64,000 bases of DNA from Halanaerobium sp. (GCA_041694515.1 JASMSZ010000054.1:1074-65073); one strand, 5' to 3'. Shown: positions 42,391 to 49,460, counted from the first letter of the stretch. Notes: generated by a model from the letters alone, not told the origin. Numbers and translations are program-made.

Positions 42391-44925
42391 TTATTCCAGG
42401 TCTCTATAGAACTTAACCATATCTCTGCCTGCACCTTTGGCAATATAAAGGGCTGTATCTGCCTGTTTAATTAATCGCTCAGCAGAATATTTCCCTTCCC
42501 CATTAACCGCCACTCCTATCGAAACAGTTATTTTTAATTTTTCACCTTCAAAATCAACTTCCAGATCTCGTATTTTATTCATTAAACGGCTGATTACTCT
42601 GGATAAAATGCTCTGATCAACTACTTTAAAATAAATTACAAATTCTTCCCCACCATAACGGGCGACAATATCATTTTCTCTGATTTCTGACTGTAAAACT
42701 TCTGATAATTCTCTTAAAACCTGATCTCCAGCCTGGTGACCGTACTGATCATTAAAATCTTTAAAGTTATCAATATCCATTATGGCAACTGAATATTTTT
42801 CTCCATCTTTCTGCTGCAGCTGCTTATGGAAATAGGAATGATTATAAAGATTGGTCAGGCCGTCAGTAACCGATAATCTTTTTACCTTATGATGGTTTAA
42901 AGCATTTCGAATGCTGACCCGAATCTGATTGGCCAGAGTTCTGATAAACTTTTTCTGATCTTCATTAATTAACTGCTGGTATTTGGACTGCATTGCATAA
43001 AGAATTCCCTGGTAATCATTTAAATTAATGGGGATGGCAATTAAAGTCTCAATATTTTCAAAAACATCAACCTCATTTTCTATCAATATTTGTTCTGAGG
43101 CTGCAATATCTTTATAGTGACCTTTTAAGTAGAAAAATAATTCACTTTTTGCCTCTACATTAATATTTTTCATCATCTTTAACTTGTTATCTTCCTGTTT
43201 AAAAATTACTGCAGCTGACATCCCCATTGTCCCCACTATTATATCAAGTATGCGCTCATAAAGCAGATCTAAGTCCAGAGTTGAATAAAGAAAGTCAGAA
43301 GTTTGCTCCAGAGTTGAGAGGCTGGCTAAGTTTCGCTCCAGACTTTCATATAAAATTGCTTTTTTTAGGTAATTCGGAATCTGCTCTATAAAAAGATGAT
43401 TTTTTTTAATGTCATAAAGATCTACTTCATTACTTAAAATTATCATTAGAGCTTCTACTTCTTCAGCCAGGGGAATTAAAAATGCATTTTCAAAACCCAG
43501 AACATCTTTTTTGCTGATAATCTTTGTCGGCCGCTCCTGCCAGAATTCTTTAAATGCATCATAGGCTTCAGCTCCCAGATTATCATCCAGATAAATTTTA
43601 ATTAAATTTTCGGCTTCCTCAATTATTATTCCACCACTATAATCCTGCTCCTCAAAAATCATTTTAAAAAGGATAGCAGCAGTTTCCTCAACCTTATGAT
43701 TACCGGTTGCCCGATTGGCTTTCCTCATTTTATTATTAATCATTTCCAGCTCGGAAACTACTTTTTTGGATAAGTAAAAAAGATGCTCAGTTTTTACATC
43801 CGGTTTTTCTGTATCAAATTCTATTTTCTGATGTACAACCTCATTCTTTTCGCTTAAATACAGAACAGTAGTTGTAATATTTAAATACTCAAATCTATTA
43901 TCTATAATTCCATACTCTCCACCCGAACAAAAACCTGCCTTGGGAGCAGGAATAACTTTAATTTCTTCACTCAAACTGGAATTAAGTGATTTTAAATATC
44001 GGTTTCTCCCGGTACAGGAATAAACAAATGAAAACTCAGGATAAAAATCAAGATTTTTCTGCAGCCGCATTGAATTAGAAAGGATTTTATTTAAACTGCC
44101 GTAAGAAATTTTAACCTGATCACCAGTCTTTAACTCACCCGAAAACTTAATACCATCCCCCACAACCTCAGTTGCAGAACGTGCATTTTGAAAGCCTCTA
44201 TTTAAAAGCAGCGGAAATTCTGCTGCAGCTGCAGTAGGTAACTTATCCTTAATATCCTCTCCTAAAAATTCGGAATAAACCTGAAAAATATTCCTGCCAT
44301 CAAGCTCATATACTACCTGGTTTTCAGCCTTTGTAATTTCCATTTCTCTACTAATACTGTCCCAGCCCATACTGTAATTCCATTTAGCTTTCAGCTGGCT
44401 GCCGTTAAGAATCAGAGCCAGACTGCCTTTTTTGATTATTCCATTTTTATCAAAAAGATAGCACTGCTCATTTTCTCCACCCGGGTTGGCCTGACCGCCT
44501 GCAATTACAGGTATAGTCTCCAGTTTATTAAGTTCTTCGACTAGTTGATCTCCATTTGTATATTTTTTATCAGAAAAAATTATTATTGCTTTAGTATCAG
44601 CTTCTACTGCTTCCATTATTTTTTGGGCATTTTCCCGGCTGCTCAACTCACTTTTCAGCAGTTTAAAACTACTTTTTTCAAAGAGCAGTGCTGCTGCAGT
44701 TATTGTATTCAGGTTAACTTCATTACCAAAAATTATCTCTTCTGCACTGACCCCAATTAAAGTGGATAGGGGTAAATAGCGATTAAAGGCAGATATTATT
44801 TTCTTATTCACCGTTTCAGATTTAGCTGAAAAAATCTGTACTACCTGAGCAGGTGAATCTTTAATTTTTTTGAAAAAATTTACTAGCTCATTTGAACTCT
44901 GACCTTGTATTGTTTCTACCTGCAA
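42391..44925 (-). CDS. FIST-GAF-GGDEF diguanylate cyclase
   Basis: N-terminal FIST (IAGGQA, YELDG, YSCTGR, GEYG), GAF-like middle region, TDGLTNLYNH, MDIDNFK..ND.YGH.AGD, and RENDIVARYGGEEF with RxxD I-site. Confidence 0.9.
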   Translation of the reverse strand: MQVETIQGQSSNELVNFFKKIKDSPAQVVQIFSAKSETVNKKIISAFNRYLPLSTLIGVSAEEIIFGNEVNLNTITAAALLFEKSSFKLLKSELSSRENAQKIMEAVEADTKAIIIFSDKKYTNGDQLVEELNKLETIPVIAGGQANPGGENEQCYLFDKNGIIKKGSLALILNGSQLKAKWNYSMGWDSISREMEITKAENQVVYELDGRNIFQVYSEFLGEDIKDKLPTAAAAEFPLLLNRGFQNARSATEVVGDGIKFSGELKTGDQVKISYGSLNKILSNSMRLQKNLDFYPEFSFVYSCTGRNRYLKSLNSSLSEEIKVIPAPKAGFCSGGEYGIIDNRFEYLNITTTVLYLSEKNEVVHQKIEFDTEKPDVKTEHLFYLSKKVVSELEMINNKMRKANRATGNHKVEETAAILFKMIFEEQDYSGGIIIEEAENLIKIYLDDNLGAEAYDAFKEFWQERPTKIISKKDVLGFENAFLIPLAEEVEALMIILSNEVDLYDIKKNHLFIEQIPNYLKKAILYESLERNLASLSTLEQTSDFLYSTLDLDLLYERILDIIVGTMGMSAAVIFKQEDNKLKMMKNINVEAKSELFFYLKGHYKDIAASEQILIENEVDVFENIETLIAIPINLNDYQGILYAMQSKYQQLINEDQKKFIRTLANQIRVSIRNALNHHKVKRLSVTDGLTNLYNHSYFHKQLQQKDGEKYSVAIMDIDNFKDFNDQYGHQAGDQVLRELSEVLQSEIRENDIVARYGGEEFVIYFKVVDQSILSRVISRLMNKIRDLEVDFEGEKLKITVSIGVAVNGEGKYSAERLIKQADTALYIAKGAGRDMVKFYRDLE

Positions 44926-45040: not shown

Positions 45041-45074
45041 AAAAAATAAAGGAACTATCATTATGATAGTTCCT
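45041..45074 (-). terminator. Terminator of the nrdD-nrdG-small ORF operon
   Basis: AGGAACTATCAT-A-ATGATAGTTCCT hairpin with TTTATTTTTTT tail. Confidence 0.85.
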
Positions 45075-45132
45075 CGGCAATAGTTGATAGTTATAATTAG
45101 ACAAATTTATAAGTCTAAATATTTTATTCAAT

Positions 45133-45261
45133 CTATTCTTCATCATATTTAAAAGTCCTGCGGTCTTTAAATTCTTCTTTTTTTCCTTTATTCCATTCAG
45201 AAACTGGTGACAGATAACCAACAACTCGCGAATAAATTTCACACTTTTGTTTTTTAGCCAT
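45133..45261 (-). CDS. Stand-alone 42-aa glycyl-radical segment of class III RNR (MAKKQKCEIYSRVVGYLSPVSEWNKGKKEEFKDRRTFKYDEE); absent from ORF track
   Basis: GGGAGG SD, ATG 45261, TAG 45133. YSRVVGYL.PV..WN.GK.EEF.DR is the canonical NrdD C-terminus carrying the radical Gly. Confidence 0.9.
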   Translation of the reverse strand: MAKKQKCEIYSRVVGYLSPVSEWNKGKKEEFKDRRTFKYDEE

Positions 45262-45350
45262 TTTTAAACCTCCCTAACTTATTATGATTTTGCTGCCTTC
45301 TTTTCCACACTGAAAATAGACAGCTGCCGGCAGCAGTGCCAGCTATATAA

Positions 45351-46049
45351 TTAGTCTCTTATTTGAACATTTTTAAGATATTTTTCTGCAGCTAACTTGA
45401 ATTGTTCCAGTTCTGAAGGTGCAAAAGAGCGCTGATCTCGCAACCCGGGAGCGAGAGTATTTACCGGCCTGAAATTTTGAATATAATATTTTTCTGCACC
45501 TTTAATTTGCTGAGCAATCTTTTTTATCTCTTCTTGATTATGCAGTCCTGGAACAACTGTAGTCCTGAACTCATAATTTAAATCAGATTTGATTATCATT
45601 TCAACTGAACTTTTGATATCTGAAATCAAGCCGGCTGGAGCCAGCTGTTCATAACTGGCCCAGCTAAATTTGATGTCAACTGCCAGATAATCTATTAAAT
45701 CTGCCTCAATCAACTTCTGCAGCTTCTCAAAATTGCTGCCGTTAGTATCCAGTTTGAGCAGCAACCCATGCTCTTCTTTTATTTTAAGCATAAAATCTTT
45801 TAAATCAGACTGCAGCAGCGGCTCCCCTCCCGTAATTGTAACTCCATCCAAAAGATTTTGCCGCTGCTCCAGAAAACCGAAAAAATATGATTCCGGCATC
45901 AATTCTTTGCCCTCTGACAGGTTGAATGGAATCAGCTGCCTGTTGTGACAATAAGGACATTGAAAATTACAGCCCTGAGTAAAAACAACAGCTGATATCT
46001 GGTCCGGAAAATCAATAACCGAAGTTTTCTGCAGTCCTGCCAGCCGCAT
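45351..46049 (-). CDS. nrdG: Anaerobic RNR activating radical SAM enzyme
   Basis: DFPDQISAVVFTQGCNFQCPYCHN, ITGGEP, KLDTNGS and YEFRTT. Confidence 0.93.
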   Translation of the reverse strand: MRLAGLQKTSVIDFPDQISAVVFTQGCNFQCPYCHNRQLIPFNLSEGKELMPESYFFGFLEQRQNLLDGVTITGGEPLLQSDLKDFMLKIKEEHGLLLKLDTNGSNFEKLQKLIEADLIDYLAVDIKFSWASYEQLAPAGLISDIKSSVEMIIKSDLNYEFRTTVVPGLHNQEEIKKIAQQIKGAEKYYIQNFRPVNTLAPGLRDQRSFAPSELEQFKLAAEKYLKNVQIRD

Positions 46050-49000
46050 CTAATTGACACCACTTTCTGCTTTAATTTTTTCTTTATTATTTTTTTTAAC
46101 TTCTGATTCTGCTTCACATTTAGGGCAGTACTGATGCTCTCCCGGCAGATAACCGTGAACCGGACAGATGCTGAAGGATGGAGTCAGGGTATAATAAGGA
46201 AGTTTAAAATTTTCAGCAATTCTTTTAACCAGCTTTTTAGTGGCTTTAATGGAGTCTATTTTTTCTCCCAGAAATCCATGAAGTACCGTACCCCCAGTAT
46301 AAAGTGACTGAAGTTCATCCTGCAGCTCTAAAGCTGTAAATATATCATCAGTTAAGCCCACCGGCAGCTGAGTTGAATTAGTATAATAGGGATCTGCATC
46401 TTCTTTTACTACCCGCTCCTGATTGGCAGCAATTATCTGATTACCAAACTTTTCTCTGTCCAGGCGGGCAAAACGATAGGCTGTACTTTCAGCCGGAGTT
46501 GCTTCCAGATTATACAGATTATCTGTTTCTTCCTGATACTGCTGCAGGAGCTCTCTCATCTTTTCCATTACTTCTTTAGAAAACTGCTGGCCTTCTGGAG
46601 TTGAAATATCCTTACCCATAAAATTGAGGAGAGCCTCATTCATTCCGTTGAGACCAATTGTATTAAAGTGATTTTTCCAGTACTGATCAAAGCGCTTTTT
46701 TATATCTTTTAAATAAAATTTTGCGTAAGGATATAATCCCTGCTCAGTTAGGGTTTCCAAAACTTTGCGCTTAACTTCTAAACTTTCTTTTGCCTGATCC
46801 ATCAGATAATAGACCCTCTCCATAAATTCTTCTTTAGTCTGAGCCTGATAACCGATCCGGGGCATGTTTAAAGTTACCACGCCTATGCTGCCTGTCATCG
46901 GGTTAGCCCCAAATAAGCCTCCTCCTCTTTTGCGGAGCTCTTTGTTATTAAGACGCAACCGACAGCACATACTCCTTGCATCTTCAGGATCCATATCCGA
47001 ATTGACGAAATTGGAATTATGAACAACCACATTATTTTTTAATGTAAATAAATGATTTTTACTATTAACATGAATGTCAACAGTTGATATTTCTTTTTTT
47101 ATATTTGTTAAACTTTTTATTTCTACATAATTATTTGTTTCTTTAATTTTATTTACAAATAAATATATTCCATCTGTATCTTTTTTTACTCTAAATATAT
47201 CCTTCTCCTTATATTGACGGAAGTCTTTACCAAATTCGTTTAATGACTGTTTTTTTGTTATGATCTTATCTCCTAAATTAGGTTTGTTGCTATCTTTTGC
47301 TATTAACCTGCAGGCTTTTCTTGTTATTGAAAATCCAATTTTATCTTTAAAAATTTTTATATTTTTTTCTCCATGAATTCTAATCTCCCCATACTTTTTC
47401 CTTGAAGACTTATAATATGCTGCTATTCCAAGAAACATTAAAAGTTCTAATACCTGTTGTAATAACTTTCTATTTTTAAGAGTAAGAGTAATAATAGGAT
47501 TCCCACTATTATTTATTGAAATAGATCCATCAGTATCAAATAGTCCTCTTAATAATGCTCCAATTTCTTCATCATTTCTTTTATATATAATTTGGGGTAT
47601 TTCTTTTTCATCTCCTCTTCCAAATTTTAATCCTATATGTTTCAAAAATTCTTTTAAAATTTTTGAATTTACAGTTACATCCAGACAAGTCTTACTGCTT
47701 CCAGCTTTTGAAATTGAACTATCTAAATCAAATTTATCATTGATAGTCTTTACAAAAAAATCTATAATTTCACTATCATTACTGGTTAAACGAATAGAGT
47801 TCTTAGTCTTTGATAAATAGCCATCTCCTAACAATTGACCAACCATTTCAAATATGTCTTTATCTAGTTTTTGAGGTATCCTTATATCTTTCAATGTAGT
47901 TTGAAATCTATTGGGTTCATAATTAAATTTTTTAATTATTTTCCTTTCTCTATTTCTAATTCTTAAACAATAAAAATCATCAATCTCATTTTTATTTAAT
48001 TTTTCAAATCTTATCTTTTTTCCTGATTTATCAATTATATCAAAAAGATGATGATTCTCATATGATAGTATAAACCCATTTTCAAAAACAATTTGTTTAC
48101 CATATTCCTGCAATTTATCATTAAGTGTTAAGTCTTCAGCCTTTTTTAAACCATTATCTGTAGGAAATTTATGATTCTTAGAACATTCAATTTTCTGTTG
48201 TTTTTCTGTAATTATTTTAATATATTCTTTATGATTATTTTTAAATAAATTAGTTATGCTATAAAAATTACCATCATCACCTAAAACTTTATCTTTACTG
48301 ATATTAATATTTTTTAATTGTTTGGATCCTTTATCAGTTATGATAAATGTATCTTCACTCAAACAAAAATATGGTATCCCGAATTTTGCTGTCATTTCCC
48401 AGACCGGATCCAGTTTTTCATTTTCCCACTCAAAGTCCTCAGTTATGTTGTAAGTAGGAATCGGAAAAGAAAACATTCTGCCCTTGGCATCACCCTCCAT
48501 CATCAATTCAGCAAAGGCTTGGTTAAGCATATCCATCTCCTGCTGAAATTCTCCATAGCATTTTTCCTGATACTGGCCACCAATTATAACCGCCTGATCT
48601 TTTAAATAATTGGGAATCTCGAGGTCCATGGTGATATTTGTAAAAGGACTCTGAAATCCAACTCGGGTCGGCACATTCATATTAAATAAAAATTCCTGCA
48701 CTGCCTGCTTAACTTCTTCGTAATCTAGGTTATCATAGGCAATAAATGGTGCCAGATAGGTGTCAAAATTGGAAAAAGCCATTGCGCCTGAAGCCTCTCC
48801 CTGTAATGTATACATGAAATTTACAATTTGTCCAAGTGCTGTCTTTAAATGTTTTGGGGGAGCACTTTCAATTTTGGTTGGAACTCCTCTAAAACCAGTC
48901 CGCAGTAACTCCTCTAAATCCCACCCACAGCAGTAAACACTCAAGTTACCCAGATCATGAATATGTAAATCACCACTGCTGTGCAGTTTGGCAGTTTCTT

Positions 49001-49460
49001 CCGGATAAATTTCCTGCAGCCAGTATTGACCTGTAACCTCAGAGGCAATATAATTATTTAAGCCCTGGAGCGAATAACTCATATTGGAGTTTTCATTTAC
49101 CTTCCAGTCACTGCGGTCTAAATAATCGTCCATAATGTTAACCGCATCTGCAAATAATTTTTTGCTATCCCGAAGTTTGCTGTGCTGTTCCCGATAGAGA
49201 ATATAAGCCTTTGCAATTTCGGCATATCCTTTTTCAATTAAAACTTTCTCGACTAAGTCCTGAATCTGTTCAACCTCTACAGTTCCACCATTTTTAAAAA
49301 AGATTTTCAGATAAGATAAAACCTCAGCTGTTATTTCTTCTGCCACCTCATCATTTTCCTGGTCAACTGCCTCAGCGGCTCTTGCTACCGCGCTTTTGAT
49401 CTTTTCTGCTTTAAATTCAACTTTTTTACCATCTCTTTTTTTTACATAATCTAAAGTCAT
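46050..49460 (-). CDS. nrdD: Class III anaerobic ribonucleoside-triphosphate reductase, intein-containing and lacking the glycyl-radical C-terminus
   Basis: ATP cone (VKKRDG), HIHDLG, YCCGW, FPIPTYN, SMCCRL finger loop, TGSIGVVTLN, EATPAE and CPVHG..CPKC Zn site; ends ...AESGVN without an RxxGY motif. Confidence 0.95.
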   Translation of the reverse strand: MTLDYVKKRDGKKVEFKAEKIKSAVARAAEAVDQENDEVAEEITAEVLSYLKIFFKNGGTVEVEQIQDLVEKVLIEKGYAEIAKAYILYREQHSKLRDSKKLFADAVNIMDDYLDRSDWKVNENSNMSYSLQGLNNYIASEVTGQYWLQEIYPEETAKLHSSGDLHIHDLGNLSVYCCGWDLEELLRTGFRGVPTKIESAPPKHLKTALGQIVNFMYTLQGEASGAMAFSNFDTYLAPFIAYDNLDYEEVKQAVQEFLFNMNVPTRVGFQSPFTNITMDLEIPNYLKDQAVIIGGQYQEKCYGEFQQEMDMLNQAFAELMMEGDAKGRMFSFPIPTYNITEDFEWENEKLDPVWEMTAKFGIPYFCLSEDTFIITDKGSKQLKNINISKDKVLGDDGNFYSITNLFKNNHKEYIKIITEKQQKIECSKNHKFPTDNGLKKAEDLTLNDKLQEYGKQIVFENGFILSYENHHLFDIIDKSGKKIRFEKLNKNEIDDFYCLRIRNRERKIIKKFNYEPNRFQTTLKDIRIPQKLDKDIFEMVGQLLGDGYLSKTKNSIRLTSNDSEIIDFFVKTINDKFDLDSSISKAGSSKTCLDVTVNSKILKEFLKHIGLKFGRGDEKEIPQIIYKRNDEEIGALLRGLFDTDGSISINNSGNPIITLTLKNRKLLQQVLELLMFLGIAAYYKSSRKKYGEIRIHGEKNIKIFKDKIGFSITRKACRLIAKDSNKPNLGDKIITKKQSLNEFGKDFRQYKEKDIFRVKKDTDGIYLFVNKIKETNNYVEIKSLTNIKKEISTVDIHVNSKNHLFTLKNNVVVHNSNFVNSDMDPEDARSMCCRLRLNNKELRKRGGGLFGANPMTGSIGVVTLNMPRIGYQAQTKEEFMERVYYLMDQAKESLEVKRKVLETLTEQGLYPYAKFYLKDIKKRFDQYWKNHFNTIGLNGMNEALLNFMGKDISTPEGQQFSKEVMEKMRELLQQYQEETDNLYNLEATPAESTAYRFARLDREKFGNQIIAANQERVVKEDADPYYTNSTQLPVGLTDDIFTALELQDELQSLYTGGTVLHGFLGEKIDSIKATKKLVKRIAENFKLPYYTLTPSFSICPVHGYLPGEHQYCPKCEAESEVKKNNKEKIKAESGVN
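47016..48365 (-). mobile_element. Intein (450 aa) with LAGLIDADG homing endonuclease in nrdD
   Basis: Begins CLSEDTFI after extein GIPYF and ends VVVHN before +1 Ser (SNFVNSD). Block B SKNH; LAGLIDADG motifs MVGQLLGDG and LLRGLFDTDG; visibly more AT-rich than the flanks. Confidence 0.95.

Follow-up and report, generated by a model that had tools for sequence, protein, structure and literature searches.

A putative two-subunit class III ribonucleotide reductase of Halanaerobium with its glycyl-radical loop encoded as a separate 42-residue protein

The class III ribonucleotide reductase (RNR) is known as a one-chain enzyme, NrdD, which is served by an activase, NrdG, and is represented by the systems of Thermotoga maritima (4COI/4U3E), phage T4 (1H78) and Prevotella copri (8P23). 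This report addresses a locus of Halanaerobium sp. (GCA_041694515.1 JASMSZ010000054.1:1074-65073), contained in a stretch of 64,000 nucleotides that is referred to as the window. The locus shares with the one-chain systems the ATP-cone, the NRDD barrel, the SMCCRL motif, the Zn ribbon, the YSRVVGYL loop and an adjacent NrdG2-type activase. However, a cut separates the Zn ribbon from the glycine loop, and the loop is the product of a separate gene, a 42-codon open reading frame (ORF) placed after nrdG. Additionally, such split forms differ from one-chain NrdD in having a tail on the large chain (the body), a short leader on the peptide, and GYL[S/T]P in place of GYLRP. The locus probably encodes a two-subunit class III RNR, judging from its sequence and that of its relatives, with the peptide as a regular, radical-bearing part of the enzyme and not as a spare.

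Small stand-alone proteins that carry a glycyl-radical loop have been described before. GrcA/YfiD of Escherichia coli is such a protein, presumably charged by the cognate activase and active in trans; it copies the end of a complete enzyme, pyruvate formate-lyase (PFL), and rescues that enzyme after damage (PMC13450708). Thus far, spare-part proteins are known only for formate lyases, others being "yet to be determined" according to a 2026 review (PMC13450708). The window peptide is of the NRDD family and lacks the PFL-type Gly_radical domain, and at 42 residues it is much shorter. The preliminary description of this DNA had drawn the analogy with GrcA, which breaks on a defining point, as there is no complete enzyme here for the peptide to copy or to rescue.

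RNR catalytic subunits encoded by two genes are also known. The class I NrdA of Aeromonas phage Aeh1 is one of these, in another class and with another cut point. The class II enzyme of Pseudomonas aeruginosa is made as NrdJa and NrdJb, two gene products that must assemble (Crona et al. 2015, via PMC9669993); class and cut point again differ. In neither of these two cases is the radical-initiating element isolated on a mini-subunit. Among glycyl radical enzymes, small accessory chains are found in the alpha-beta-gamma assembly of benzylsuccinate synthase and as the small subunit of 4-hydroxyphenylacetate decarboxylase (PMC13450708). In the window, the cut frees a 42-residue radical carrier, and the gene that intervenes between the two pieces is the activase. 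Those two multi-subunit glycyl radical enzymes have their radical glycine on the large catalytic chain, whereas here it lies on the small one. No description of a split class III RNR was found in the searchable literature, from which subscription journals are largely missing, and the literature on Halanaerobium yielded no paper mentioning this enzyme. The locus is a real, conserved and apparently undescribed variant of a well-known enzyme.

The divided chain in the window

The features of the window described below all lie on the minus strand, and their positions are counted along the whole stretch. The nrdD body gene (46050..49460) encodes a precursor of 1136 residues that ends in CPVHGYLPGEHQYCPKCEAESEVKKNNKEKIKAESGVN, and the ATG of nrdG (45351..46049) directly follows its TAG stop codon. 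The nrdG product is a radical-SAM activase of 232 residues, with a match to TIGR02495 NrdG2 (E-value 6.5e-58, 195 bits against a cut-off of 131) and with the Pfam domains Radical_SAM and Fer4_12. Downstream of it lies the 42-codon ORF (45133..45261), with the translation MAKKQKCEIYSRVVGYLSPVSEWNKGKKEEFKDRRTFKYDEE and its own Shine-Dalgarno sequence GGGAGG (45269..45274), 7 nucleotides upstream of the ATG. The gap between nrdG and the peptide gene holds just a weak 5-bp hairpin. A strong intrinsic terminator (45049..45075; 12-bp stem, 3-nucleotide loop and T run) comes only after the peptide gene, starting 58 nucleotides past its stop codon, with a fold z-score of -4.99 and 0 of 200 shuffled sequences folding as well. 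This terminator is probably the end of an nrdD-nrdG-peptide operon.

The body is a clear member of the NRDD family up to the point at which it stops. It matches Pfam NRDD PF13597 (E-value 2.4e-177, 591 bits, cut-off 26.2) over profile positions 1-533 of 562, TIGR02487 (507.8 bits, cut-off 326) up to position 549 of 581, and NCBIfam NF006126 with 1019.7 bits (cut-off 548). The ATP-cone occupies residues 5-94 of the precursor in Pfam. The family features found are the barrel profile, the Zn ribbon and the adjacent NrdG activase; the RVxGY loop, which in the family lies on the same chain as the barrel, is absent from the body. The last conserved element of the body is the Zn ribbon CPVHGYLPGEHQYCPKC (46116..46166), with the spacing C-x2-H-x9-C-x2-C, whose CPVH...CPKC aligns with ...CEDGHAFYGERCPVCG609 of T. 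maritima NrdD, where the Zn motif is CxxxHx6CxxC (PMC4493059). It is followed by a charged tail of 21 residues, EAESEVKKNNKEKIKAESGVN (46053..46115), which is specific to split forms.

The peptide supplies the part that the body lacks. Its sole Pfam match is NRDD PF13597, at positions 530-562 of 562 (E-value 6.3e-11, 42.1 bits against the cut-off of 26.2), and it matches TIGR02487 at positions 549-579 of 581. The body covers positions 1-533 of PF13597 and ends at 549 of TIGR02487, so one piece takes up where the other leaves off, without gap or overlap. Gly15 (codon 45219-45217), within YSRVVGYL, is presumed to carry the radical, and digestion with trypsin would release VVGYLSPVSEWNK from the 42-residue protein. 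The preliminary description had claimed that NrdD stops after its Zn site with no radical motif, that the ORF at 45261-45133 follows nrdG with its own GGGAGG and precedes the terminator, and that this ORF encodes exactly the missing tail; each of these is borne out by the coordinates and the profile matches.

The position of the cut can be read on the T. maritima enzyme. In the alignment with 4COI, the body runs through CPVCG609, residues 4-37 of the peptide correspond to 610-643, and Gly15 corresponds to the radical glycine Gly621; this places the cut between G609 and K610, downstream of the Zn ribbon and ahead of the Gly621 loop. The body was aligned to the Protein Data Bank (PDB) with a 320-residue query; a query confined to its last 109 residues gave no match. 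[quoted passage not shown] In P. copri NrdD, the glycyl radical domain is ordered as Zn site, buried loop and surface tail (PMC11226230). From the layout of these two enzymes, it follows that the cut passes through the glycyl radical domain, leaving the Zn ribbon on the body and the loop with the surface tail on the peptide. One-chain relatives read CPKC-xxx-CEVYSRVVGYLRPV, with 3-5 residues between C..C and CEVYSR. Compared with them, the split adds the 21-residue body tail and a 6-residue peptide leader, and no residues are lost.

An alignment of 30 stand-alone peptide homologues contains 15 invariant columns, and Cys7 (codon 45241-45243) is among the residues conserved in all 30. The same cysteine occurs in most one-chain relatives (CPKCxxxCEVYSR) and is replaced by valine in T. 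maritima NrdD. A role for Cys7 as a zinc ligand bridging the two chains is conceivable; against this weigh the full C,H,C,C set of the body, as in T. maritima NrdD, and the presence of the fifth cysteine in the one-chain relatives.

The body gene is additionally interrupted by a LAGLIDADG intein of 450 residues (47016..48365; precursor residues 366-815). The intein extends from Cys1 (CLSEDT...) to ...VVVHN, is followed by Ser+1, and lies about 20 residues ahead of the SMCCRL finger-loop motif, whose two Cys codons were read from the sequence at 46962..46967. It matches LAGLIDADG_3 twice and intein_Nterm with 22.4 bits, with Intein_splicing below its cut-off. Cys1, the His-Asn pair, Ser+1, an endonuclease domain and an intein-less allele, all features of a cis-splicing LAGLIDADG intein, were found. 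The intein-less allele, in Halanaerobium saccharolyticum MA284_T2 (L007), encodes a 686-residue NrdD whose extein counterpart is 99% identical and whose junction reads FGIAYF|SNFVNSD; therefore the mature body has 686 residues, comprising the ATP-cone, the alpha/beta barrel and the Zn ribbon, with the glycyl-radical loop absent. A further locus (L005) has an intein at the site used in the window, and both read IPYF|SNF at the junction, compared with IAYF|SNF in L007; near-identical strains therefore differ in whether they carry the intein. NrdD frames in Halanaerobiales reach 1556 residues and are interrupted at no fewer than three other profile positions (about 157, 250-263 and 471-506), and these varied insertion positions across the order make nrdD an intein hot spot there.

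The intein and the cut in NrdD are unrelated. With a cis-splicing intein already in the same gene, one may ask whether protein trans-splicing or ligation links the two pieces after translation to give a one-chain NrdD. The intein signal in Pfam and NCBIfam is limited to residues 366-815, and no split-intein halves occur at the junction of the pieces; the 21-residue body tail and the 6-residue leader are far too short for such halves, the tails of relatives having 1-29 residues. We regard joining as extremely unlikely.

Conservation, selection and the proposed enzyme

The genome that contains the window (95.8% complete) encodes a single nrdD and a single peptide, and no one-chain NrdD. As no complete NrdD is present, the peptide is read as a regular part of the enzyme. 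The same division is found across the order. NrdD occurs in 64 of 72 Halanaerobiales genomes, from 20 genera; no body match goes beyond profile position 538, and the one-chain form is seen in 0 of the 64. At least 51 of these 64 genomes, single-contig ones among them, have a separate frame of 41-79 residues about 0.8-1 kb downstream that covers positions 530-562. Other genomes of the same class have split NrdD too, and in a wider sample of the phylum (166 NrdD-bearing genomes) the majority carry positions 1-562 in one frame. Stand-alone peptides of 40-72 residues already make up at least 200 clusters in the protein database, for example from H. hydrogeniformans, Iocasia and Halarsenatibacter, under the names "hypothetical protein" or "anaerobic ribonucleoside-triphosphate reductase".

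This distribution bears on the objection that a frameshift or a misjoin in sequencing or assembly has divided an intact gene. The whole of nrdG stands between the pieces, and the layout recurs in dozens of independent assemblies, as well as in complete genomes of a single contig, so that an artefact is refuted and its probability is practically negligible. The preliminary description had argued, from the intervening nrdG, that no frameshift was involved, and the wider survey upholds this; its statement that the ORF is unannotated needs correcting, as such peptides are already present in the protein database.

Substitution patterns indicate that both pieces are under purifying selection. For the body, the ratio of nonsynonymous to synonymous substitution rates (dN/dS) is 0.041 against H. 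kushneri and 0.054 against H. saccharolyticum. For the peptide, the ratio of the proportions of nonsynonymous and synonymous differences (pN/pS) is 0.14, with pS at 0.85, over 25 core codons in 35 stand-alone peptide genes, and the invariant Ser, Arg, Leu and Gly of the peptide are each spelled by 4-6 different codons. These values contradict the reading of a silent or decaying locus, in which the truncated NrdD would be inactive, the small ORF a remnant, and all deoxyribonucleotides would be made by a class II RNR. Such a reading draws on a class II-type RNR gene in the same genome, encoding 806 residues, and on similar genes in 66 of the 72 Halanaerobiales genomes. A silent locus should not, however, show synonymous sites near saturation together with conserved residues, nor frames that stay intact in 64 genomes of 20 genera. 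Start codons are retained, most of the small-ORF homologues having their own ATG and a GGAGG-like site nearby, and the intein is retained with intact splice junctions. Decay is therefore a very improbable explanation.

The class II-type RNR of the window genome (G000:C112:7752-8111; L004:898-3318) resembles an ATP-cone protein at its N-terminus and carries an NPCAE motif and, at its C-terminal end, the Cys-rich sequence CETGACPVR. With just 33.8 bits on Pfam Ribonuc_red_lgC, it belongs to a weak-scoring type found genus-wide, other families of the order having a type that reaches about 340 bits. The argument that NrdD must function because it is the sole RNR was rejected in view of this gene.

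On this evidence, the best reading is an obligatory trans-acting radical subunit, since the split is real, the peptide holds the sole glycyl-radical loop in the genome, the arrangement is conserved across the order and selection is purifying. The preliminary description had proposed the same, and the comparative data support it well. We infer that the pieces would assemble without a covalent link, that the radical would form on the peptide, and that the assembled enzyme would be active. The course of events may be envisaged as follows. The nrdD, nrdG and small-ORF genes would probably be transcribed as one message that ends at the terminator (45075-45049). The NrdD precursor would splice out its 450-residue intein to give the 686-residue body, and the peptide would complete the glycyl-radical domain in trans, with its YSRVVG15YL loop reaching into the barrel, as the loop of one-chain enzymes does, and the C-terminal portion lying on the surface. 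NrdG, with S-adenosylmethionine, would then abstract a hydrogen atom from Gly15 of the peptide. The radical would pass to a cysteine of the SMCCRL finger loop, and reduction of the ribonucleoside triphosphate would follow. This cysteine is the presumed thiyl-radical residue by analogy with the SCCR motif of T. maritima NrdD, which was considered likely to move into the active site (PMC4493059).

Several points weigh against this proposal. The class II-type RNR of the same genome, with its counterparts in most of the order, means that the case for NrdD function rests on conservation and selection and not on necessity. The peptide genes used for the selection estimate were picked by motif pattern, which biases that test toward conservation. 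Mechanically, a chain of 42 residues that is held only non-covalently must exit the barrel to reach NrdG.

Some sequence marks accompany the split. GYL[S/T]P is found in 35/35 split peptides, compared with GYLRP in 17/17 one-chain relatives examined, and CP.HGY...C..C is present in 32/32 of the split bodies listed. The tails of split bodies vary from 1 to 29 residues, with a DEEMGY-like start in Synergistota and in loci where the peptide gene precedes nrdG, and with EAE.. in Halanaerobium, where the DEEMGY-like start has decayed. As the split clade has one origin, GYL[S/T]P and the tail start may be marks of the clade and not adaptations to the split.

Gene orders and copies on viral contigs

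Eighty named loci, found with the peptide alignment, were sorted by gene order. The order nrdD-nrdG-peptide, the synteny envisaged in the preliminary description, was found at 38 of the 80, in Halanaerobiales, Orenia and many Synergistota. Thirteen loci have nrdD-peptide-nrdG and come from Patescibacteria, some metagenome-assembled genomes (MAGs) labelled Gammaproteobacteria, and one Halanaerobiales MAG. One-chain forms account for 21 loci, in Omnitrophota, Planctomycetota and others, and the remaining 8, from various MAGs, are lone peptides whose flanking sequence lacks nrdD and nrdG. A third gene order was seen in L089:3232-6437, where the peptide ORF lies 30 nucleotides upstream of an intein-containing nrdD body, with no nrdG on the 7.6-kb contig. 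An apparent fusion of NrdG and peptide in a 352-residue frame (L016, G042) was rejected as an artefact of a run of 100 N bases.

In a maximum-likelihood tree of 49 bodies, made by a quick search and rooted at the midpoint, the loci with nrdG between the pieces, including those of Synergistota, form one clade, with a value of 98 in the Shimodaira-Hasegawa-like approximate likelihood ratio test (SH-aLRT). Its sister is a locus in which the peptide gene precedes nrdG. Both belong to a split clade (93) from which the one-chain forms are excluded. The nesting of the nrdD-nrdG-peptide order within this larger clade implies that the split has persisted through a long diversification. In the simplest account, one old cut after the Zn ribbon was followed by one rearrangement that put nrdG between the pieces, and the resulting three-gene cassette may then have spread among Bacillota and Synergistota; given the midpoint root and the quick tree search, we infer this order of events rather than read it directly from the tree. 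A Lentisphaeria MAG (L082:4201-4635) has an independent split, on a long branch beside an archaeal one-chain form; it carries two peptide-like stretches between nrdD and nrdG, and its radical-loop motif is GYFRP.

Peptide genes also occur apart from any body gene, in bacteria and on viral contigs. Lone split-type peptide ORFs were found in the bacterial MAG loci L034, L042, L043, L045 and L047, with no nrdD or nrdG in the flanks, which extend about 4.5 kb on both sides in most of them. The best 80 matches to the peptide on viral contigs (IMG/VR) comprise 44 lone small ORFs flanked on both sides by at least 2.5 kb without nrdD or nrdG, 27 lone ORFs with short flanks, 7 one-chain forms and 2 split forms. 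Two of these contigs show the order endolysin-holin-peptide-TerS-TerL-portal-minor head protein, and their split-type peptides (L085:1345-1458 and L086:25-138) are 87-89% identical to that of the window, with no nrdD or nrdG nearby. Two genomes of the genus to which the window belongs contain relatives (67-78% identical) of the terminase DNA on these two contigs. GenBank phages gave just 3 weak matches, 2 of them under genes annotated as anaerobic RNR and 1 in an unannotated record.

A phage that carries the peptide alone must use the body and the NrdG of its host, and so the peptide is a module whose source can be another gene. The phage copies fit an exchange of peptides. The preliminary description had suggested that the radical subunit is exchangeable and that this could make O2 cleavage at the glycine cheap to repair. 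In the extended form of this idea, the peptide would be a free radical cofactor or cartridge, charged by NrdG, loosely bound in the barrel and swapped after such cleavage; cheap repair would maintain the split, and phage copies would re-arm the host enzyme during infection. The lone viral ORFs, the arrangement of the two phage loci and their ties to the genus are what such a view would draw on, together with extra lone copies in bacterial MAGs, such as L034, which is an additional peptide copy in the same MAG as a complete nrdD-peptide-nrdG locus (L058). The spare-part principle itself has been demonstrated by GrcA for pyruvate formate-lyase (PMC13450708). However, the window genome has a single peptide gene, which stands in the operon, ahead of the shared terminator, and with no evident promoter of its own. 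Halanaerobium species are strict anaerobes, which also counts against the idea, and the phage copies speak for supply in trans and not for turnover or repair. Overall, a swappable cartridge is unlikely, and a two-subunit enzyme with the peptide as its regular part is preferred. If it were true, the cartridge would extend the spare-part systems of glycyl radical enzymes beyond pyruvate formate-lyase for the first time, and no earlier system would have its part supplied in trans in every case.

Many other viral contigs (L091-L164) carry lone peptides of one-chain type (GY[LIF]RP), some with N-terminal extensions that contain CxxC pairs (for example L128, L129, L139, L146, L148). These could be true spares for hosts that have a one-chain NrdD.

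Neighbouring features and implications

Searches near the operon for a regulatory RNA or an NrdR box found none; there was one sub-threshold Rfam hit, and one chance-level pattern match lay elsewhere. The divergence of the operon from that of H. saccharolyticum MA284_T2 is mosaic, with 94-100% nucleotide identity in the nrdD exteins, 77-79% in nrdG and about 92% in the peptide gene, a pattern that suggests recombination within the operon. The neighbouring ORF of 844 residues (42391-44925) has a C-terminal GGDEF-type domain with the motif RYGGEEF, read from its translation alone, and is likely a diguanylate cyclase.

Glycyl radical enzymes are described with the radical glycine on the large catalytic chain. 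If the peptide is indeed the radical subunit, one of the most ancient enzymes in the synthesis of DNA precursors would have a naturally occurring version with two subunits. A synthetic peptide with isotope labels or altered residues would then be a tool for the study of radical installation by NrdG, of radical transfer and of oxygen damage. Furthermore, thousands of "truncated" nrdD genes and "hypothetical proteins" of 40-70 residues would become readable as two halves of one enzyme, and the lone copies on phages would form a class of auxiliary genes.

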